From NCBI GenBank assembly GCA_965208905.1, contig OZ242365.1, positions 1,357,902 to 1,389,901 on the forward strand: DNA of 32,000 nucleotides. Direction: 5' to 3'. Each line of letters starts with the position of its first letter. Positions within the stretch are counted from its first letter, which is position 1. The DNA comes from Nitrosopumilaceae archaeon (GTDB lineage Archaea; Thermoproteota; Nitrososphaeria; Nitrososphaerales; Nitrosopumilaceae). The position numbers and the translations under genes are program-made. The notes beneath the pieces are model-generated. The model did no database searches. It was not told where the DNA came from and saw only the letters and a list, made by a program, of their open reading frames with translations. Of the stretch, positions 7,831-20,573 are shown piece by piece.

Positions 7831-7866
7831 TCTACCTTTATAACCAATTGTGTGTTACACTTAAAA

Positions 7867-9570
7867 ATGAAAGTAAGTTTAATTATGCTCTTGCTGGCAG
7901 CGGTTGTTGCCACAGGAGCTACGATGACTAGCGCATACGCCCAACAGAACGGAGAGTCGATGGAAGCAATGGAGTCGATGGAAGCAATGGAAGCCCCAAT
8001 GCCCCCATCACCGTTTGCTCCCGGACAGTCAGTCTACTTCCCTCACGCTATGATCGGTCAGATAACCTCTAATCTTCCGCTGCCACCCTTCGACATGGCC
8101 AACGGCAACGCAGTCTTTGGGGTAATAATCCCAAACTTGGGTACTTGGATTCACCAAGAGGTATCCCCACACTTTGCGGACCCGTCGCTGTCGTTCAGAT
8201 ATGTTACGCTGATTCTTAATGCCGGCTACGACGCGACGGCGCCTTATCACGAGACGGCCGTCGGCGTATACTCACGTATTGACAACCGCCCGGCAAGTGA
8301 ATCTGCCGACAGCTACAACATCAACGTTGCATCCATCTATTCGGGATACCGGATGGGGATGGCGTTCGACCCAGACCGTGAACCGCAATGGCGGGCTATG
8401 ATGACTAACAATGGCTTGGACCCTGACGATGACACCGGATTGGACCTAGACTGCTCCCAGACGCACCAACTAGACTCGCCCATCGCCATAGGTAACTTGG
8501 CGAGCAAGTGTGTACTGGAGGCGCGGTGGTCTGATGGTTTCAACCACTTTGGGGATGAAACACCAGGACAACCATTCCGGGACACCACAGGCTATTCACC
8601 CGTCAACTCGGCCAACGAGCTGGTTGATCCGTCCAGGTGGCAACCTCTGATAAAACAACTCAGAGAGGGCACTTGGGTATCTCAACAGTTCACCACGCCA
8701 CAGTGGGCCGTGACCGAGCCATACTCGGACATCGATCCGAGAGAGTTCAGAGCACCACCCCCGTTCGCCAGTGACCACGCCTTTATGGACGACTACAAGG
8801 CACAGGCTGACGAGGTACTGGCTGCAGTAGCAGGCCTGACGGACGAACAGAAGATGCTGGTGGAATACTTCGACAACAAGGCACGTGAGACACTGTTCTT
8901 CCCGGCTGTAGAGGCGCTCCCAAACACAATGGACTTTTGGCAACTGGACTTTATGTTGCACATAGCCCAGTTTGATGCAGGAATTGTTGCTTGGCAAGAG
9001 AAGGCCAGATACGATGCCGTGCGCCCTGTTACCGCAATAAACTATCTGTATAGTGATGAGATCGTTCAGACCTATGGAATAGGCGGAGACGGTCCGAGAT
9101 CCATCGCAGGCAGCGAGTGGTACAGCTACGCTAACACTGGAGATCATCCAGAGTACCCATCCGCTACTGCATGCTTCTGCGCGGCGCAAGCTCAAGCTTG
9201 GAGGAATTATCTAGGTGGAGATGAAATCCCAGACGTTACCCTACCCAACGGGGAGGTTGTCGACGGATTCGTCGGAATATTGCCCGCAGGATCGTCCATA
9301 CACGAACCAGGAGTGACCCCTGCCAATGACGTAGTAGTAACCTATGACACTTGGACAGAATATGAGCAAGATTGCGCGGAAAGTAGGATATGGGCTGGTC
9401 TGCACTTTAGAGCGGCAGTAGAAGAGTCGCTCAATACGTGTAGCGATATAGGCAATGCGGCTTGGGACTACTTCTCAACACTGCTGGACGGGACAGCCCC
9501 GCTCAGACAGCCTGCTGAGAAACAAGACCAGGATCCGTTGCTGAACAGACCACACTTCACCGGACGATAA
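7867..9570 (+). CDS. secreted PAP2-superfamily / vanadium-haloperoxidase-like protein
   Basis: Signal peptide MKVSLIMLLLAAVVATGATMTSAYAQ. PAP2/VHPO motifs are KARYDAVRP (KX6RP), HPEYPSAT (a degenerate PSGH) and SRIWAGLHFRAAVE (SRX5HX3-like). ATG 7867 is preferred over GTG 7852. Confidence 0.7.
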   Translation: MKVSLIMLLLAAVVATGATMTSAYAQQNGESMEAMESMEAMEAPMPPSPFAPGQSVYFPHAMIGQITSNLPLPPFDMANGNAVFGVIIPNLGTWIHQEVSPHFADPSLSFRYVTLILNAGYDATAPYHETAVGVYSRIDNRPASESADSYNINVASIYSGYRMGMAFDPDREPQWRAMMTNNGLDPDDDTGLDLDCSQTHQLDSPIAIGNLASKCVLEARWSDGFNHFGDETPGQPFRDTTGYSPVNSANELVDPSRWQPLIKQLREGTWVSQQFTTPQWAVTEPYSDIDPREFRAPPPFASDHAFMDDYKAQADEVLAAVAGLTDEQKMLVEYFDNKARETLFFPAVEALPNTMDFWQLDFMLHIAQFDAGIVAWQEKARYDAVRPVTAINYLYSDEIVQTYGIGGDGPRSIAGSEWYSYANTGDHPEYPSATACFCAAQAQAWRNYLGGDEIPDVTLPNGEVVDGFVGILPAGSSIHEPGVTPANDVVVTYDTWTEYEQDCAESRIWAGLHFRAAVEESLNTCSDIGNAAWDYFSTLLDGTAPLRQPAEKQDQDPLLNRPHFTGR

Positions 9571-10502: not shown

Positions 10503-10552
10503 GCTTCTGGTAAGTTAACGTGAGATAGATCATCTTGGAAAGTGAGTGAGAT
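10503..10552. repeat. 50-nt inverted repeat, arm A (left border of the AT-rich island)
   Basis: gcttctggtaagttaacgtgagatagatcatcttggaaagtgagtgagat equals the reverse complement of 16894-16943 at 46 of 50 positions, including a 27-nt perfect run. Confidence 0.9.
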
Positions 10553-10695: not shown

Positions 10696-11181
10696 CTAGC
10701 CAGACAACTTATAGTTGGTGTTTTCCTTTAACCATTGTCGGATAGTAGAATGAAGACCCCTCAACTCTGGGTCCCAAAGATACCTTACTGTTTCCTTATG
10801 TGCGCCTAACTCATCCAATACCATTCCAAAATACGACATCACATGCTGTTTTGTGAGTACACTATCATAGTATAAAGAGGTGACTGTAGTTAGATGATTG
10901 AGGTATTTTACACGTATGAACTTTAAGTTGTCATCTGTCTCAAATGTTTCTTGGTGGGATATCATAGAACACGCTGTGTACAAGTCCTTATCATTATACA
11001 GCTTCTCCCACAATTTTAGTATGAGATGTGCTGAATCAATCCAGACTCGTTGGTTCAACATATCTTTTTGTTGTTGAACCTGATGTCGGTTTGAGCGCCA
11101 TATCGCAAATGCAACCACCGCACTACCGCAGAATGTAAGTGCCGCAATGATTACGGAGATTGCCAATCCGAGATCAAACAT
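10696..11181 (-). CDS. hypothetical protein with an N-terminal transmembrane anchor
   Basis: 161-aa ORF. One N-terminal TM helix (LAISVIIAALTFCGSAVVAFAIW) is followed by a helical soluble part. No family was recognised. Confidence 0.55.
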   Translation of the reverse strand: MFDLGLAISVIIAALTFCGSAVVAFAIWRSNRHQVQQQKDMLNQRVWIDSAHLILKLWEKLYNDKDLYTACSMISHQETFETDDNLKFIRVKYLNHLTTVTSLYYDSVLTKQHVMSYFGMVLDELGAHKETVRYLWDPELRGLHSTIRQWLKENTNYKLSG

Positions 11182-11580: not shown

Positions 11581-12840
11581 TTAGGATGTTGACTTTGCAG
11601 CTGCTTGAATCATGGTAAGCCACTTGTTGTCACCTTCAACGGTGATACCTGCAGCCTCGGCGGGGGTTATCTGGTTTGGGAGTCCAAGGTGTGGGCGTAC
11701 AAAGTTGTGATACAATCGCAATCCAGAGATTATGCTAGAGTCATCCTTCTTCAAACCACGGCACACTTTCTCACGGTGTCGTAGTGTTGCCCCGTTGAAG
11801 GATTCCATTTGGTTGTTATGATGTATGCCATCAAAGGCAACATCATGTATATGCTCGGTCTCTTTGTGCAGAAAGTTCTTTGCTTTATACTGTTGTTTCC
11901 AAGCATGGTGAAAGTTGGCTGCCTTGTCACTAATTAATGTGGTTGGAACTTTACCCGTTACCTTCTTGGCCTGTTTAAACATCGGTGCTACGTCGTCATT
12001 GCCTTTGTGTTCGGCTACCATCTTGGCTATCCAAAACCTAGTCTCTGAATCAAGCATTGCAAATAGATATTTGCGGTTACCCTTGATTTTCAGGTATAAT
12101 TCATCTGTACGCCACTGTTCACCGACTTGTGGTTTAATCTTGTCAACAAAGGTCTCCATAAGTTCACCATACTGTTTACCCCAATTTTGTATGGTAACAT
12201 GAGTAGTCTTAAGTCCAGTCATTTCAAGGCTGCGGGCAACCTTCCTACTAGATAAGCCGCTAAACAGTAAATCTACAGCCTGTGTAATCTGTTCAGGTGT
12301 GGCTCTCTTGCGAGTGAACCCGACATTATGAGTGAACCGCTTAAGGCAGTCTATACACTTGAACTGCTGAACTGGACCTTTCTTGAACTTTCGTATACCA
12401 CATTTCACTACATTGGTTGACTCACAAAATTTACACTTGGTAAGGTCAACCTGCTTGATAATGATTTTAGGTACTTCCTGTTGTACCGCTTTTCTTATTC
12501 GGCGGCTTATCTCGACTGCATGAATATGCTTGCATATTACACCACGATACATATGATCCGGGCATGAACAAATCCAGCCATGCTCGGTGGATAATACCTC
12601 GTATACTTTATCGGATGATTGGGAACGTACCGTGTATGTCAGGTCGTCTATTCTCGTGATTTGGTTAGATTTACTGACTATTTGAGCGCCCCGTGTTATG
12701 CGGTCATTGGTGGTCTGTCCAGTCACATTGCCAACTGATATATTGTATAATGGTGTAATATGCTCAGAGTGCAATTCGCTCGTCATTGGGGTTGCTGCCC
12801 CTCTGGCTTTTGTTTTCATCATCGCATTTGTTATTGTCAT
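11581..12840 (-). CDS. DDE transposase, IS6-like (IS240-type) with N-terminal SWIM and zinc-ribbon fingers
   Basis: 419-aa ORF. SWIM finger is CSCPDHMYRGVICKHIHA and Zn ribbon is CKFCES...CIDC. Candidate DDE triad residues sit in WRTDELYLKIKG, LISDKAANF and NNQMESFNG. The tail is YHNFVRPHLGLPNQITPAEAAGI. Element ends were not identified. Confidence 0.8.
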   Translation of the reverse strand: MTITNAMMKTKARGAATPMTSELHSEHITPLYNISVGNVTGQTTNDRITRGAQIVSKSNQITRIDDLTYTVRSQSSDKVYEVLSTEHGWICSCPDHMYRGVICKHIHAVEISRRIRKAVQQEVPKIIIKQVDLTKCKFCESTNVVKCGIRKFKKGPVQQFKCIDCLKRFTHNVGFTRKRATPEQITQAVDLLFSGLSSRKVARSLEMTGLKTTHVTIQNWGKQYGELMETFVDKIKPQVGEQWRTDELYLKIKGNRKYLFAMLDSETRFWIAKMVAEHKGNDDVAPMFKQAKKVTGKVPTTLISDKAANFHHAWKQQYKAKNFLHKETEHIHDVAFDGIHHNNQMESFNGATLRHREKVCRGLKKDDSSIISGLRLYHNFVRPHLGLPNQITPAEAAGITVEGDNKWLTMIQAAAKSTS

Positions 12841-12915: not shown

Positions 12916-13146
12916 GTGTTGGGAATTACTAAAAAAACAATCAAGGGTCTGGAATACATCTATTTTGCCTATTATGACGAGACATCAAAATCTAAACAAT
13001 ACAAATCGTGTGGGTCTGCTACCAATAAGGAATCTATGATCAAAGCTATATCACTTGAGCGCGAGTATCTGAAGCGACGTAAGAATAAACTAAACGAGGA
13101 AATTACACAGATACAGGAGAAAATAGATGGACTTGCAAAGTTATAA
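12916..13146 (+). CDS. small hypothetical protein: Arm/AP2-like N-terminal hairpin plus coiled coil
   Basis: 76-aa ORF with GTG start. KKTIKGLEYIYFAYYDETSKSKQYKSCGSATNKES resembles the Arm-type DNA-binding domain at the N-terminus of tyrosine integrases, and the C-terminal half is heptad-like. Its stop codon abuts the first 19-nt repeat. Confidence 0.35.
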   Translation: MLGITKKTIKGLEYIYFAYYDETSKSKQYKSCGSATNKESMIKAISLEREYLKRRKNKLNEEITQIQEKIDGLAKL

Positions 13147-13259
13147 TACGAGGCCTACGGCCAAATACGAGGCCTACGGCCAAATACGAGGCCTACGGCC
13201 AAATACGAGGCCTACGGCCAAATACGAGGCCTACGGCCAAATACGAGGCCTACGGCCAA
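13146..13259. repeat. perfect tandem repeat, 6 x 19 nt (atacgaggcctacggccaa)
   Basis: Six head-to-tail identical units were counted directly (13146, 13165, 13184, 13203, 13222, 13241). Each unit holds AGGCCT and a GGCC-tac-GGCC mini-palindrome. Confidence 0.97.
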
Positions 13260-13330
13260 ATTATACAAGCGGCGCCATACTATACAATACATACAACGCC
13301 TTATCAATTCATCGGAGGCTGTATATGTGA

Positions 13331-14779
13331 ATGTCTGGCATCAAGAACCGGACAATATTCACAGGCGACAACCTAGAGATATTACGTGGCTTTCCAGATG
13401 AATTTGTTGATTTAATATATCTAGACCCGCCATTTAACTCAAAACATAACTATGCTGCCCCCATAGGTTCTAAGGCGGCTGGGGCTGCCTTCAAGGATAC
13501 GTGGACTTTACAAGATGTGGATGTATCATGGTGGGGGGAGATTGCCGAGACAAACACTGCCCTGTATAAGGCACTAGAGGCAGCCAAACATACAGCAGGC
13601 AAGAGTGCCATGTCCTATCTAATCTACATGGCAATACGCATACTAGAGATGTATCGTATACTAAAGAGTACAGGTTCTATATACTTGCATTGCGACCCAA
13701 CCATGTCTCATTATTTGAAGATGGTGTTGGATTCGATTTTTGGAGTAGTGAATTTTAAGAACGAGATTGTATGGAAACGATCAAAGGGACATCCACTATC
13801 CATTAAAAAATTTGAAGCAGTAGCAGACTATATCTTAGTTTATCAAAAATCAGGTAACAGTGTTTTCTACCCAGTAAAATTACCAATGGATGAACAAACA
13901 ATAAAAAGAGATTATAGATATAAAGATGAACATGGGCGTTACAGTACATGTTCATTAACAGGTGGCAAGGCTGGCGGTGAATCTGCGTACTTACCATTTA
14001 ACGGTGCATTACCATCTTCAGGACGTGGATGGGCGCCACCTACTAGGCAAAAGATACCACAATGGGCAGCAAAAATATTACCTTCAGATTATGAAAAGAT
14101 GAATCAACTTGAAAAATGCCACGCTTTAGATGCTATTGGAATGATAGTATGGTCTGCTAATAACGTGCCTAGATACAAACACTATCTAAAAGACGTTCCA
14201 TACAAACTTGCTAATAGTGTATGGTATGACATAAAATTACTAACCTCCCATTCCAAAGAAAAACTCGGCTACCCCACCCAAAAACCCATAGCCTTGTTAG
14301 AACGTATAATACAAGCCTCTACAAACGAGGGAGATATTGTACTAGATCCGTTTTGTGGATGTGCGACCGCCTGTTCAGCAGCTGAACGGCTAAACCGAGA
14401 GTGGATTGGTATAGACATATCACCAAAGGCGGTTGAGTTGATGAACGCCAGAATGGTCAGCGAGGCAGGGATTGAAAAGTGGACAAAGGGCGCAGGAATG
14501 GTAATTCAAAGGACGGACATACCAATACGCAAAGGCAATAGATCAAAGAACATAAAACATCAACTATTCGGTATGCAGGAAGGCAGATGTAATCTATGCA
14601 GACATGAAATTGAATTTCGACATATGGAAGTCGACCATGTAATACCAAGGGCCAAGGGTGGACCTGATGATGATGGCAACCTCCAACTATTATGCGGTCA
14701 TTGCAATCGTGTTAAAGGTAAGGGGACAATGGCAGAAGCAAAGGTGAGACTGATCAAGCTGGGAATAGTAGCCCGTTAG
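13331..14779 (+). CDS. beta-class N6A/N4C DNA methyltransferase fused to a C-terminal HNH endonuclease domain
   Basis: Motif IV IYLDPPFN lies near the N-terminus. GYPTQKPIALLERII and motif I VLDPFCGCATA...IGIDISP come late, giving the beta order. The C-terminus CNLCRHEIEFRHMEVDHVIPRAKGGPDDDGNLQLLCGHCNRVKG is a canonical CxxC...DH...N...CxxC HNH domain. Confidence 0.85.
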   Translation: MSGIKNRTIFTGDNLEILRGFPDEFVDLIYLDPPFNSKHNYAAPIGSKAAGAAFKDTWTLQDVDVSWWGEIAETNTALYKALEAAKHTAGKSAMSYLIYMAIRILEMYRILKSTGSIYLHCDPTMSHYLKMVLDSIFGVVNFKNEIVWKRSKGHPLSIKKFEAVADYILVYQKSGNSVFYPVKLPMDEQTIKRDYRYKDEHGRYSTCSLTGGKAGGESAYLPFNGALPSSGRGWAPPTRQKIPQWAAKILPSDYEKMNQLEKCHALDAIGMIVWSANNVPRYKHYLKDVPYKLANSVWYDIKLLTSHSKEKLGYPTQKPIALLERIIQASTNEGDIVLDPFCGCATACSAAERLNREWIGIDISPKAVELMNARMVSEAGIEKWTKGAGMVIQRTDIPIRKGNRSKNIKHQLFGMQEGRCNLCRHEIEFRHMEVDHVIPRAKGGPDDDGNLQLLCGHCNRVKGKGTMAEAKVRLIKLGIVAR

Positions 14780-15080: not shown

Positions 15081-15482
15081 TTACCGTATATCTACGGTAG
15101 TTGTAGAATCTGGATTTGAAGAGAAAAGCCAGCCACGGGTTTGAGCTACTACTCTGAGATTCTTAGATATTCTCTTAATTTGACTTTTTGTAGAATTCCC
15201 AAACTCAATGAATGCATGTTCCTCGTATGGTATATGATCATCCACAACATCCAGATTCATGCGTGTACATTCGTTCACGGTCACAGCCATAACCCCGCTT
15301 GATTCTTTGTGTAATGTAGATGTATAATGTTGCCATGCTTTTTTAGCTGTTATTTGATCTCCATCGTAAACTGATAGACGGCACGGATCTCTTGATGAAG
15401 GACGAAATGCTCTAGATCCAGCACGACCTTCTCTAACGAAATTAGGATGAATCTGCCGGTATAGTTGGGTCTCACCATTCAT
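15081..15482 (-). CDS. hypothetical 133-aa protein, downstream member of a two-gene operon (candidate toxin/effector)
   Basis: ATG overlaps the upstream stop as ATGA. Motifs in order are LYRQIHP, RAFRPSSRD, RLSVYDG and PYEEHAFIEF. This aromatic-Arg ... Ser ... acidic pattern loosely recalls R-S-E ADP-ribosyltransferases. The family is unassigned. Confidence 0.6.
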   Translation of the reverse strand: MNGETQLYRQIHPNFVREGRAGSRAFRPSSRDPCRLSVYDGDQITAKKAWQHYTSTLHKESSGVMAVTVNECTRMNLDVVDDHIPYEEHAFIEFGNSTKSQIKRISKNLRVVAQTRGWLFSSNPDSTTTVDIR

Positions 15483-16606
15483 TTCAACATCTCTTTCATG
15501 GAGCGTATTTGGTTAGCCACCCATTCCCAACTATCCTGCTTGTTAAGATCTAATACCGTCTCATCACTGGAATTAGTACTAACATCATACCAACTCCATT
15601 CGCCACTATGCTTTACAAGATCTACCTCTAGGCTAATTTCCCGTTTACCTATACTCCATTCTAAATCAAGATCACCCTTGGGAGTGGGGTATATGTGAGG
15701 AAGCACAACATTGTTGGGATAATATTGCTTGAAGATGTCAGATAGCCAATCCAAGCCATCATGACTAGGAGCAACACCTTCACCATTTAACCAACCAGTT
15801 TTCATGGTACGCAGCTCATCTAACTGTACCAATACATCCAGTTTATCCAGTAAATGGATGTGAGTTATTGATTCAATAGAGATACGTCCATCTCGACTGT
15901 GCTGAACAGTACCCTGTATCTGTACTCTTGCATTGTCCTTATATCTGTCGAATGCTTTCATAATGATGTCATAGTAAGGGTCCGGCAGATGGCCTGTAAC
16001 TAACGGACCATAGACCTGTTGTAGACTAAATGTCATGTTTTTTTGATCTATCTTATGCACGGAGCCACGTAGAACTACCTCACTCGCACGCCTAATTGTG
16101 GATGTAAGAGATAGTACCTTATCGCGTATTTTTTTGGTTAGCCTAGCCGGAGTTTGATGCGTGGAGGCAGTCAACTCTAATGTCTCATCATCACGAAGAT
16201 TATGTCCTATATGCTTAAGGTGTTCTAACATGTCATACGATGGAACCTCGTCTGGTGGTAGTTGTTCATCCTGTGCCAGATGCTTAATAGTCTCTACTAT
16301 ATACTCTTTCGCACTCTCAAAATATTTTTGGTGTAGTATCTGCCCATCCAATGTCTGTTGTGTTGTGGTGAGTTTGAATACTGGTACGGTGCTTCCACTT
16401 TCAATACTAACTAATTCCAAATCAACTTTACTAAAGTCAGGTGAAGAACGTCTACGATTTGGATTATCTTTTAAATACTGCCATCGCGCTACTTCTATCA
16501 CCATCTCTTGCAGGGCATGCAAGTTGGGAAGAACGTCTTTCGGTATCCCCCCGTTCTTAAATCGCGCTCCATCCAACCGAGGTCGTAAAAAATCTACGCT
16601 TGGCAT
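15479..16606 (-). CDS. hypothetical 375-aa protein, upstream member of the two-gene operon
   Basis: Long ORF with ATG start and no nuclease or NTPase motif seen by eye. The C-terminal roughly 100 aa (GWLNGEGVAP...LPHIYPTPKGDLDLEWSIGKREISLEVDL) look like an independent beta-rich domain. Confidence 0.6.
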   Translation of the reverse strand: MPSVDFLRPRLDGARFKNGGIPKDVLPNLHALQEMVIEVARWQYLKDNPNRRRSSPDFSKVDLELVSIESGSTVPVFKLTTTQQTLDGQILHQKYFESAKEYIVETIKHLAQDEQLPPDEVPSYDMLEHLKHIGHNLRDDETLELTASTHQTPARLTKKIRDKVLSLTSTIRRASEVVLRGSVHKIDQKNMTFSLQQVYGPLVTGHLPDPYYDIIMKAFDRYKDNARVQIQGTVQHSRDGRISIESITHIHLLDKLDVLVQLDELRTMKTGWLNGEGVAPSHDGLDWLSDIFKQYYPNNVVLPHIYPTPKGDLDLEWSIGKREISLEVDLVKHSGEWSWYDVSTNSSDETVLDLNKQDSWEWVANQIRSMKEMLK

Positions 16607-16893: not shown

Positions 16894-16943
16894 ATCTCAC
16901 CCACTTTCCAACATATTCTATCTCACGTTAACTTACCAGAAGC
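16894..16943. repeat. 50-nt inverted repeat, arm B (right border of the AT-rich island)
   Basis: Reverse complement of 10503-10552 (46 of 50). It ends 1-2 nt before the first hairpin of the IS110 leader. Confidence 0.9.
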
Positions 16944-17127: not shown

Positions 17128-18155
17128 ATGAAAAAAAGAATTGCATTACATCGGAATTGACGTACACATGAGAAGATGTGTGGCCACCACCAAGGGAAGA
17201 TCCAAAAAGGTGTTAGACCAGTTTGAGTTCAACAACGACCTGCACGGGATACGTGCGTTCGCCAGCAGAATGCTGCGCCGCGAGTACACGCCGGCGGTAG
17301 CCGTCTTTGAGTCCACCGGTAACTATTGGAAGGTACTCCACAACGAGCTAGAGGAGACAGACATCAAGCCGGTCCTGGTCAACCCGTACGACCTCAAGAT
17401 CATCACTCAGGCAAAGTTTAAGGACGACCGGGTTGACTCTGAGAGGTTGTCCGACCTAGCCAGGGGAGACCTGTATAGACCATCCTACGTTCCCACCCAG
17501 AAAGAGATGGACCTGCGCGAGCTTACCCGCACCCGCCTGGATTTGCGGTACGACGCCACCGAACACAAGAACCACGTGCACGCTATCCTGACCAAATATC
17601 CGCTCAAGAGGCCCCCGAATATCTACACGGCCAAGGGTATGGAATGGCTGCAGACCGCACCCGTCCGGAACTACGACCGAATGGCGCTTGACTCCCACCT
17701 GTATATCCTTAATGCTACCGAGAGACGCATATCCCTGCTGGAAAAGGAGATCTGCAGGATAGCCATCTTTGACCCGCGGGCCCGTCTTATGATGACCATG
17801 CCCGGGGTGGGACCGGTCACCGCGGTGACCGTCCTGGCGGAGATAGGGGACACAGGCCGGTTCGCCAGGCCTGAGCAGCTGACCGCCTACGCGGGTCTGG
17901 TGCCGTCCCACAGGAACAGCGCAGACACAGTCCGGACCGGCGGCATCACCAAAGTCCGGATCCCGCTGGCTCAGGAACGCGGCCGTAGAGGCGGCGTTCG
18001 TGGCTGTCCGGCACGACCCATACCGCAAGGGTAGATACGAGCGACTGGCCGCCAGGAGAGGCCCGCAGAAGGCTCGGGTCGCCGCGGCTCGGGAGATGCT
18101 AGAGGACATGTGGTACATGCTGACCAGGAACGAACCATATAACCATCCCAACTAA
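17128..18155 (+). pseudogene. IS110-family (DEDD) transposase/recombinase, interrupted by two single-A frameshifts
   Basis: YIGIDVH N-terminal motif and the MPGVGPVTAVTVLAEIGDTGRF...LTAYAGLVPSHRNS IS116/IS110/IS902 domain. After 17955 the protein continues in the +1 frame (KSGSRWLRNAAVEAAFVAVRHDPY...NHPN*, stop at 18153-18155). ATG 17128 has a perfect aaggaggtga SD but is out of frame unless the A7 run is read as A6. Confidence 0.8.
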
Positions 18156-19538: not shown

Positions 19539-20573
19539 TCATTTATTTGTCATCTCCAACTGTTCGGCAAATTCTACTGGTGTCATGTATCCGATAGAGG
19601 AATGAATCCTCTCGGTGTTGTAATCTACAAAGGCCTTTGCAATGATCGTCTCTGCCTCCTGATAGTTCGCAAACTCGTGCGGCCAGATGTATTCCTTTTT
19701 CAGCGTCTTGTGAAATGATTCGACATGTCCGTTCTGCTCCGGCGTATTCTTGTAGATGAATTCATGTTTGCCGATGCCAAGGGCCTGAACCGCATGTCTA
19801 AAGTCGCGGCTCGTATACTGGTTGCCGTTGTCCGTACGCAATCGTAATTGTGAGCAGTCAGGTTTCTCTGCGGCAACCGCGTTGGTGATTGAGGTGATTG
19901 CAATGTCTCGTGTGGCATTGACATCAAACGCGTAGGCGATCCACTTGCGCGTAAAGCAGTCAATTACGTTGAAGCAGTAGCACCAGCCGTCTATACCGCA
20001 CCAGATGTATGTGATGTCCGTCTCCCACAACTGGTGTGGGGCTTTGGGTTTGAAGAGCTTTTGACCCGCTCGAATGATGTCGTTTTTGGTATTTTGTGGC
20101 TGGATGTAGCCCATTTTGCGATATATCCGCTGTATCTGCTTGCGGTTCACCACAATTCCCGTATCGCGCGTTATCTGGGCCGCCATGCGCCGTGTGCCGT
20201 ACGTGGGCCTCTTTCTGCTCGTATCTAGCACAGTGCTCAATATATCCGGATTCAATCCCATGTCTCTGGGCTTGGGTTTGTAGTACCATTGGCGCCTGGA
20301 TACGCCCGCATACCCTAGCGACTTGCGCAGGCTCAAATGTTGTTCCTGCATGATTTTTACCGCGTTCAATCGTTGCTTGCCTCCAAGGTTTTTTTTAAAG
20401 CGTCGTTTGCGATTGTCAGATCCCCTATGATTCGCTTTAGGTCGCCGTTCTCCTTTTTGATGGCCTTTATCGGATCCTTCTTTCCGTGATGGGTCAGTCC
20501 GGACTTGCCTGCGTCCATGAACTTTTGCCGCCAGGCTTGAAACGTTTGGGGATGAACGTTGTGCTTGCGGCAC
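19539..20573 (-). CDS. IS3-family transposase OrfB (DDE/rve domain), expressed as OrfAB by -1 frameshift
   Basis: Candidate DDE triad residues sit in WETDITYIW, RTDNGNQYTS and HVESFHKTLKKE. The -1 frame after TTA AAA AAA A (plus-strand T8 at 20389-20396) reads NLGGKQRLNAVKIM, which matches this ORF. Confidence 0.85.
   Translation of the reverse strand: MPQAQRSSPNVSSLAAKVHGRRQVRTDPSRKEGSDKGHQKGERRPKANHRGSDNRKRRFKKNLGGKQRLNAVKIMQEQHLSLRKSLGYAGVSRRQWYYKPKPRDMGLNPDILSTVLDTSRKRPTYGTRRMAAQITRDTGIVVNRKQIQRIYRKMGYIQPQNTKNDIIRAGQKLFKPKAPHQLWETDITYIWCGIDGWCYCFNVIDCFTRKWIAYAFDVNATRDIAITSITNAVAAEKPDCSQLRLRTDNGNQYTSRDFRHAVQALGIGKHEFIYKNTPEQNGHVESFHKTLKKEYIWPHEFANYQEAETIIAKAFVDYNTERIHSSIGYMTPVEFAEQLEMTNK

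Follow-up and report, generated by a model that had tools for sequence, protein, structure and literature searches.

The 32,000-nucleotide stretch of DNA analyzed here (the window; positions 1,357,902 to 1,389,901 of contig OZ242365.1 from a Nitrosopumilaceae archaeon) carries a pair of overlapping genes, denoted A and B, which, as shown by profile matches along both proteins, is an intact, full-length copy of the two-gene PDC-M32 cassette catalogued in the PADLOC database. With respect to its function, we lean towards a toxin-antitoxin (TA)-like defense module of the abortive-infection type, in which B would be the effector, the C-terminal domain of A would silence it, and the OB-fold and N-terminal domains of A would form an optional sensor. 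An earlier note on this DNA, made from the sequence alone, had proposed a translationally coupled two-protein module of the defense or addiction type. That general proposal is now supported by full-length matches of both proteins to the PDC-M32 profiles, linkage of the homologous genes in 78 of 80 loci, retention of the gene overlap, and the location of 40% of the loci in or beside type I restriction-modification (RM) operons. The pair is defined by the following features.

15479 to 16606, minus strand: gene A, 375 aa, from the scan of open reading frames (ORFs) and the match to PADLOC PDC-M32A; proposed neutralizer and sensor partner

15081 to 15482, minus strand: gene B, 133 aa, from the ORF scan and the match to PADLOC PDC-M32B; proposed effector or toxin

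15479 to 15482, minus strand: ATGA start/stop overlap of A and B, read directly from the sequence; translational coupling

Both minus-strand ORFs and their 4-base overlap, as originally described, are verified, the TGA stop codon of A sharing bases with the ATG start codon of B. The two genes are more than a chance pair of ORFs: each has hundreds of homologues, and their order and the 4-nt overlap recur in unrelated phyla.

Protein A matches the profile PDLC04574 (PDC-M32A) with an E-value of 2.3e-111, residues 3-371 lying on profile positions 4-372 of 376, and protein B matches PDLC04579 (PDC-M32B) with an E-value of 5.3e-47, residues 1-121 lying on profile positions 1-121 of 123. The gene layout of PDC-M32, with A immediately followed by B on the same strand, is likewise found in the window. 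Both proteins also match PHROG families without an assigned function (A, phrog_30544, 1e-51; B, phrog_31579, 4e-35), and neither matches any family in Pfam or NCBIfam. The initial view that the proteins belong to no known family is therefore correct for Pfam and NCBIfam and has to be given up for PADLOC and the PHROGs, where the pair had already been catalogued. The acronym PDC stands for “phage defence candidate” and comes from the work of Payne, Hughes, Fineran and Jackson (bioRxiv 10.1101/2024.01.29.577857), in which 145 such candidates were derived from genes embedded in BREX, DISARM and type I RM operons. In the supplementary table of that preprint, the cassette CAS_00128 (FAM_01821>>FAM_00608) bears the entry “Assign as candidate PDC-M32”, and the number 98 standing beside it is taken here as the count of instances. 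Embedding in RM, BREX or DISARM operons is the basis of the original PDC-M32 prediction and not a requirement of the PADLOC model. No functional or domain annotation for PDC-M32 was found in the tables of the preprint (bioRxiv 10.1101/2024.01.29.577857), and a full-text literature search returned no experimental report on it, a further mention among the papers searched being in a survey of Sinorhizobium prophages. Membership in PDC-M32 therefore says little about function.

Linkage and gene neighborhoods were counted over 80 retrieved homologous loci from many phyla; ORF starts in these loci were chosen mechanically, and intermediate partner lengths are approximate. In 78 of the loci, B is immediately preceded by an A-like gene, the two exceptions having a truncated B, which bears out the partnership that had been proposed from the window. 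The 4-nt start/stop overlap (ATGA, GTGA or, in one locus, TTGA) is kept in 66 loci, and the two-gene layout holds even in relatives at only 28-33% identity, on plasmids and in a phage. The plasmid relatives come from Rhodococcus, Rhizobium and Limnohabitans, and the Limnohabitans copy is situated among RelE/ParE and VapBC modules, while the copy in Gordonia phage MagicMan adjoins a BrnT-like toxin and an integrase. The closest named relative of A is encoded in a metagenome-assembled genome (MAG) of Cenarchaeum sp. (GCA_009837245.1), a sponge-associated thaumarchaeon, in which a CAP12/PCTIR TIR-domain gene immediately precedes the A-B pair (L089/L090:76-726); this arrangement suggests a small archaeal defense cluster. 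The surroundings of these copies, on a plasmid, in a prophage-type region and in an archaeon, support the defense or addiction context that had been read from the window.

The distribution of the family is broad. An exhaustive hidden Markov model (HMM) search of 1.84 billion representatives identified 1,359 clusters of the B family at 50% identity; close clusters at 90% identity number 72 for B and 69 for A. Nearly all of the top 150 B matches listed are stand-alone proteins of ~125 aa. Relatives of B with the core motif LSVYDGDQ were detected in at least 136 of the 185,579 genomes scanned, one per species, including those of Nitrosopumilus, Chloroflexota, Acidobacteriota, Planctomycetota, Gammaproteobacteria, Desulfobacterota and one bacterium of the candidate phyla radiation (CPR). 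On viral contigs, the core B family is rare (4 loci among 2.9 million). Self-contained and transferred horizontally, the cassette occurs across numerous phyla of bacteria and archaea, as well as on plasmids and, in rare cases, phages. The closest genomic relative of the window B is found in a Nitrosopumilus sp. MAG (L001:5500-6378), where B is intact (60% identity) and the upstream A looks fragmented, with tblastn covering residues 215-316 only and an adjacent ORF of 53 aa; the cassette may be decaying, or the assembly may contain frameshift errors.

Type I RM genes are present within 6 kb of the pair in 32 of the 80 loci (40%), and in 18 loci the order hsdM-[A-B]-hsdR is found with all genes on one strand; in two of the 32 RM loci (L055 and L073), an hsdS-like gene is also located downstream of B. 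The association of the cassette with RM operons is strong but not exclusive. Scattered defense genes occur near the other 48 loci, among them mad2, RmrA, DISARM DrmD/DrmMI, a type III methyltransferase, a reverse transcriptase, MzaA and other PDC candidates. Clustering of the neighbors revealed no conserved third gene.

The AlphaFold model of A (predicted local distance difference test score, pLDDT, 91.3) consists of three parts.

16097 to 16606, minus strand: N-terminal alpha+beta domain of A, residues ~1-170, from the secondary structure of the model; no family or fold match

15848 to 16084, minus strand: central OB-fold domain of A, residues ~175-253, from its b1-b2-b3-helix-b4-b5 topology and Foldseek

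15482 to 15835, minus strand: C-terminal acidic domain of A, residues ~258-375, the only part of A found in every partner; proposed B-binding module

The N-terminal domain contains the conserved motif FLRPRLxGARF, and its conserved charged residues include R15, E38, R51, R53 and E141. In Foldseek searches, A matched OB folds with probabilities of 0.98-1.0, namely SilF (8bbz, TMt 0.66), Ten1 (8d0b and 4joi), RPA14 (3kdf) and the N-terminal domain of AsnRS, and the N-terminal domain of LysRS with probabilities of 0.4-0.9, all with modest E-values (2e-3 to 1e-1). The Foldseek output carries no query ranges, and the topology of the model indicates that these matches probably belong to the barrel at residues ~175-253. 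Comparison of the A profile with PDB sequences gave only noise at E~0.4 (VPS4 MIT domain).

The C-terminal part of A had been singled out as a separate beta-rich module, in agreement with the model, in which residues 258-375 fold into a pair of helices followed by five strands and a last helix. The N-terminal and OB-fold domains are present in about two thirds of the loci and are absent or replaced elsewhere. In about 20 loci, tblastn covers A residues ~266-375 alone; the partner is shorter than 330 aa in 24 loci, the N-terminal domain is absent from partners of 107-200 aa, and in three loci the partner comprises just 107 aa, that is, the C-terminal domain alone. This domain of ~105 aa is strongly acidic, with a median net charge of -14 and an isoelectric point (pI) of 4.3, and the charge of the minimal partners reaches -19 to -20. 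Because its invariant residues are mostly W, G, P and L, the domain is suggested to be a binding module rather than an enzyme. In a Planctomycetaceae MAG (L039:3125-3613), the partner of B is a 162-aa fusion of a Pfam AF2212-like domain (25.1 bits versus a cut-off of 21.6) with the acidic C-terminal domain of A. The AF2212-like domain is presumably an antitoxin partner of PIN toxins, and this single case is consistent with an antitoxin role for A. Other partners, in Chloroflexota, are extended at the N-terminus by 100-200 aa that are unrelated and carry no annotation.

Protein B is the most conserved component of the cassette, with a median identity of 51% to the window copy, compared with 44% for the C-terminal domain of A and 39% for the N-terminal and OB-fold domains. 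The four short blocks of B that had been quoted as conserved-looking, LYRQIHP (residues 7-13), RAFRPSSRD (24-32), RLSVYDG (35-41) and PYEEHAFIEF (85-94), are all present and correspond to conserved blocks of the B family. Conservation of individual residues was derived from an alignment of 332 sequences that includes distant phage and plasmid members.

F26 and S37: 100% conserved

H89: 99%

R9 and G63: 98%

P28: 96%

S61: 95%

Q10 and R116: 94%

D32: 92%

C72 and D82: 89%

H52: 86%

E88: 63%, with A in 15%, G in 13%, and A, G or S in most of the rest

E87: 4%

Among the residues that the earlier note had put forward for mutation, R9 and S37 are correctly numbered and turn out to be invariants of the family, and E96 and E97 have to be corrected, as positions 96 and 97 are N and S and the glutamates of the PYEEH sequence are E87 and E88.

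The confident structural model of B (pLDDT 92.8) contains, in order, a strand, a short helix, a strand, a helix, a strand, a helix, two strands and a long helix. Foldseek found nothing similar to this model at E<=1e-3 among 350,542 PDB chains or in the BFVD viral library, the best PDB match being only at E=0.2, and the B profile gave 0 matches at E<=10 against all PDB sequences. When 66 members of the B family were compared with Pfam at E<=10 and with NCBIfam, only noise was obtained. The exhaustive HMM search and another deep search, started from divergent phage and plasmid sequences, yielded nothing but further unnamed proteins of ~125 aa. No Pfam domain is present in the extensions of the few family members that are longer.

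Taken with the gene order, these features can be arranged into a putative mechanism. A would be made first, and B would be produced only via coupled translation through the ATGA overlap. B, of ~125 aa with the invariant polar residues R9, S37 and H89, would be the effector and is probably an enzyme acting on nucleic acid or a nucleotide. Sets of Arg, Ser and His residues suit metal-independent phosphoryl-transfer chemistry, as in many RNase toxins, and the chemistry of B may accordingly be of the metal-independent RNase type. The acidic, Trp-rich C-terminal domain of A would bind and neutralize B, while the OB fold and the N-terminal domain would serve as an accessory sensor or regulator, possibly by binding single-stranded nucleic acid. 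Upon infection, or upon failure of a neighboring RM system, this sensor part would release or activate B.

Several observations weigh against this assignment. The toxicity of B, its neutralization by A and the anti-phage activity of the pair are all claims that we infer, and the PDC candidates are described as untested by their own authors (bioRxiv 10.1101/2024.01.29.577857). It is the pattern of conservation that suggests an enzyme in B, because its fold and chemistry match nothing assigned; B is also near neutral (pI 6.8) and not basic like many nucleic-acid-targeting toxins. No Pfam match to a DNA-binding domain (HTH, RHH, AbrB or Phd) was found in A or in nine variant partners. Around the 48 loci without RM genes (60%), no family of neighbors recurs more than three times and most neighbors are housekeeping genes, surroundings that fit a selfish addiction cassette as well as a defense system. 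The window copy itself is located outside any RM, BREX or DISARM operon, its neighbors being a methyltransferase-HNH gene and transposases; the scan of ORFs, which covered the window from 7.8 to 21.7 kb, found none of hsdM, hsdS and hsdR.

We consider it rather unlikely that the pair is a purely selfish addiction cassette that stabilizes mobile elements or islands through post-segregational killing and has no dedicated anti-phage role. On this account, the position within RM operons would reflect a permissive insertion site or joint mobility, and the very wide and patchy distribution, the transport of the window pair on a transposon, the plasmid copies among other TA modules and the mostly housekeeping, non-recurrent neighbors of the 48 loci would all fit. 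However, the presence of type I RM genes at 32 of the 80 loci, and particularly the exact same-strand order hsdM-[A-B]-hsdR in 18, is far more specific than random insertion, and further defense neighbors are present (DISARM, mad, Rmr, reverse transcriptase and TIR-like genes). Many TA modules found in such a context have proved to be defense systems, which also counts against a purely selfish role, and addiction and defense are not mutually exclusive.

The same 18 loci, in which the pair is embedded on one strand between hsdM and hsdS/hsdR, lend themselves to another explanation, in which the pair would be an accessory or guard of RM systems comparable to PrrC with EcoprrI. A would dock on the type I RM complex, perhaps via its DNA-mimic-like acidic C-terminal domain, and B would be unleashed when a phage anti-restriction protein disables or displaces the complex. 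The extreme acidity of this domain (-14 to -20 in ~105 aa) fits such a role, a charge density of this kind being typical of the DNA-mimic anti-restriction proteins Ocr and ArdA. A precedent is provided by PrrC, an effector embedded in a type I RM operon (bioRxiv 10.1101/2024.01.29.577857). We nevertheless regard this explanation as quite unlikely. In 60% of the loci, including the window, plasmid and phage copies, there is no type I RM system nearby, so the cassette must be able to work alone; neither protein resembles PrrC in its HEPN or ABC-ATPase domains; the charge is all that points to DNA mimicry; and the universal pairing of the acidic domain with B is more simply explained by binding between A and B.

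With respect to the chemistry of B, the order of its aromatic-Arg, Ser and acidic motifs had been likened to the core of R-S-E ADP-ribosyltransferases (ARTs). B would then be a minimal toxin of this class that modifies protein or nucleic acid in an NAD+-dependent manner, its core being formed by R9 in the first strand, S37 in the second and an acidic residue ahead of the fifth, and A would be its antitoxin. Both R9 (98%) and S37 (100%) are indeed conserved and are located on strands 1 and 2 of the model, S37 in an L-S-V-Y rather than an S-T-S motif; the order of elements, with an R strand, an S strand, a helix, two strands, a Pro/aromatic loop and a strand starting from E88-H89, mimics the R-S-E arrangement; the weak tail of the Foldseek matches contains AvrPphF/HopF (1s21, rank 3) and the rifampin ART Arr (2hw2 and 9iaf, ranks 13 and 26); and Arr, with ~140 aa, shows that small size alone is no bar to the fold. 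Against this stand the catalytic position and the searches. The candidate catalytic glutamate E88 is kept in only 63% of the 332 sequences and E87 in 4%, neither an ExE nor a QxE motif is present, and it is H89 (99%) that is invariant at this position. The Foldseek values (E 0.24-1.1, TM 0.20-0.35, rmsd 11-16 A) cannot be told apart from those of the surrounding noise from aminotransferases and ribosomal proteins, and the structural comparison that had been recommended yields no convincing superposition on an ART fold (TM <=0.35). No ART, ADPrib_exo_Tox, RES, DarT, Arr, Tpt1 or PTS_2-RNA profile was matched at E<=10 by the 66 members, no ART was matched in NCBIfam, and the comparison of the B profile with PDB sequences (0 at E<=10) was equally empty. 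An R-S-E core in B, which the earlier note had raised with reservations, is not upheld, and we consider this identity improbable.

The least probable arrangement, to which we give hardly any credence, reverses the roles, with A as the enzyme or effector and B as a small regulatory or adaptor subunit, or makes the pair a non-toxic anti-restriction module of mobile elements: the larger size of A, its conserved charged residues (R15, E38, R51, R53 and E141) and OB fold, the resemblance in charge of its acidic domain to anti-restriction DNA mimics, and the occurrence of the pair in prophages, plasmids and transposons would suit it, but the N-terminal and OB-fold domains of A are dispensable in about a third of the loci while B is always kept and most conserved, the universal part of A has no catalytic-looking invariants, co-orientation inside host RM operons is hard to reconcile with anti-restriction, and viral contigs seldom carry the family (4 loci among 2.9 million).

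Other identities of B were considered and rejected. The AbiGI match (E 0.07, 12.5 bits versus a cut-off of 300) is faint, occurs in only 2 of the 66 members and is attributed to chance. Matches to the trehalose-phosphatase family T6PP were obtained for 12 of the 66 members (best E 0.003), and the motifs suggest that these matches probably arise from the resemblance of YDGD to HAD motif I (DxDGT). The registers of the two motifs differ, V38 falling at the position of the HAD nucleophile, and B is too small for a HAD fold. A Cys-His protease or Zn site is unlikely, as C72 (89%) and H52 (86%) have hydrophobic replacements. For a cytidine-deaminase-like fold, there is no HxE or PCxxC motif in B and no deaminase among the Foldseek matches listed, and for PIN or HEPN neither motifs nor matches were found.

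The surroundings of the pair in the window include the following features.

10503 to 10552: left 50-nt terminal inverted repeat, 92% complementary to the right arm

16894 to 16943: right 50-nt terminal inverted repeat, ~290 nt upstream of the start of gene A

11581 to 12840, minus strand: DDE transposase inside the element bounded by the inverted repeats (Pfam DDE_Tnp_IS240 2.3e-14, rve 1.7e-9)

13331 to 14779, plus strand: N6_N4 DNA methyltransferase-HNH fusion (Pfam N6_N4_Mtase 2e-44, HNH 5e-12; PADLOC MTase_II 3e-60)

17141 to 18034: transposase of the IS110 family of insertion sequences (DEDD_Tnp_IS110 + Transposase_20), just outside the right inverted repeat

19539 to 20573: IS3-like integrase, near the element

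The first 26 nt of the inverted repeats are identical at both ends, with 0 matches expected by chance. The 6.4-kb segment between them contains an ORF at 10696-11181 on the minus strand, the DDE transposase, a 76-aa ORF, the methyltransferase-HNH gene and the A-B pair. Because the inverted repeats bound a segment that includes the transposase, the methyltransferase-HNH gene and A-B, the pair is the cargo of a transposon-like element. Both parts of the setting that had been described for it, an island bounded by inverted repeats and a convergent methyltransferase-HNH gene with adjoining insertion sequences, are confirmed, the former by the location of the two 50-nt repeats and the latter by the Pfam matches of the methyltransferase-HNH protein and the flanking transposases. 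No clean target-site duplication was seen flanking the repeats, and the sequence of their ends had no match in metagenome contigs. The segment has a G+C content of 38-42%, lower than any other sustained stretch of the window, across which values vary between 34% and 58%; the stretch 17141-18155 has 57% versus ~41% for the island. Towards its C-terminus, the IS110 transposase ORF seems to be interrupted by a frameshift, and an ORF at 18000-18155 continues it. Just outside the mobile-element cluster, in DNA of higher G+C content, a 572-aa ORF (7852-9570) encodes DUF6851 and vanadium-chloroperoxidase-like (VCPO_2nd) domains.

The methyltransferase-HNH protein is a single polypeptide with a C-terminal HNH domain (residues 420-464), which could be a one-protein RM-like system or a methylation-linked nuclease. 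Its gene is convergent with A-B, and the two are co-cargo of the element. As a third component of the cassette it was rejected, a close homologue being found near the pair in only one of the 80 loci, that of a Dehalococcoidia (L058), where a methyltransferase-HNH homologue with 48-56% identity is encoded ~4.5 kb from the PDC-M32 pair. Directly upstream of the methyltransferase-HNH start codon (13331), there is a tandem array (13126-13277) of about 6-7 copies of the 19-nt unit AATACGAGGCCTACGGCCA; it overlaps a mechanically called 67-aa ORF (13127-13330) and could be a regulatory or phase-variation repeat.

Compared with PDC-M32 as catalogued, the window pair agrees in the full-length HMM matches, in the A-then-B order, in the shared strand, in the overlap and in the frequent embedding of homologues in type I RM operons, and differs in being the cargo of a transposon bounded by inverted repeats, next to a methyltransferase-HNH gene, in a thaumarchaeon. 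Similarly to PrrC (EcoprrI) and RloC, which are latent effectors situated between the hsd genes of a type I RM operon, PDC-M32 has this position in 18 of the 80 loci, and both are thought to be back-up defenses; however, PrrC is a single protein with ABC-ATPase and HEPN domains, neither of which was matched in A or B in Pfam, NCBIfam or PADLOC, and the A-B pair is also found in many places without RM genes. With the anti-phage type II TA systems (RnlAB, DarTG and the fused CapRel), the pair shares a compact bicistronic organization in which the proposed neutralizer comes first, coupled translation, greater conservation of the downstream protein, and horizontal spread on plasmids, prophages and islands, whereas A is unusually large and modular and has no recognized DNA-binding domain such as serves autoregulation in canonical type II antitoxins. 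Canonical type II TA modules likewise have adjacent, coupled genes, but a small upstream gene (107-200 aa) is found in only a minority of the PDC-M32 loci, and B matches no known toxin superfamily (RelE/ParE, MazF, PIN, HEPN, Fic/Doc, GNAT, Zeta, HipA, ART or RES) in Pfam or NCBIfam, and nothing in PADLOC apart from PDC-M32B. Finally, the R-S-E ARTs (cholera/C3-type, ParT) and Arr resemble B in the invariant Arg of strand 1 and Ser of strand 2, and Arr also in size, but B differs in having no conserved catalytic Glu, no profile similarity and no convincing superposition. By the features examined, the A-B pair is not a member of the AbiG, PrrC or ART families.

The family was already known as PDC-M32, which limits the surprise, and no new mechanism is established; what is new is a thaumarchaeal, transposon-borne member. 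To the catalogue entry, the present analysis adds the dissection of A into domains, a minimal two-domain core, quantified co-occurrence and RM embedding, the R9/S37/H89 set and the negative result for ARTs. The experimental handles are R9, S37 and H89 rather than the glutamates, with the 107-aa acidic domain as the minimal partner. A bolder version of the defense reading, to which we attach little credence, would have B found a new enzymatic toxin fold with an Arg-Ser-His active site, while the universal acidic domain of A would mimic nucleic acid, plugging B to keep it silent and also docking the module to type I RM complexes. PDC-M32 would in that case act as a guard, firing when phage anti-restriction proteins, for example DNA mimics of the Ocr or ArdA type, attack the RM enzyme or when the OB fold senses single-stranded nucleic acid of a phage. 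Were this true, PrrC would be joined by another “RM back-up” system that works by a different mechanism and is active in archaea as well.

Members of the B family occur widely, in Archaea, in CPR bacteria and in most of the major bacterial phyla, but Pfam has no entry for them and no relative has a solved structure. The location of the cassette within type I RM operons suggests a defense system; should PDC-M32 be one, prokaryotic immunity would gain a new effector fold and a new chemistry in B. Its modular partner, an acidic clamp with or without an OB-fold sensor, would be a useful model of how minimal TA cores acquire sensing domains, and the copy in the window provides both a thaumarchaeal instance of the cassette and a clear case of its travelling as transposon cargo together with a methyltransferase-HNH gene.

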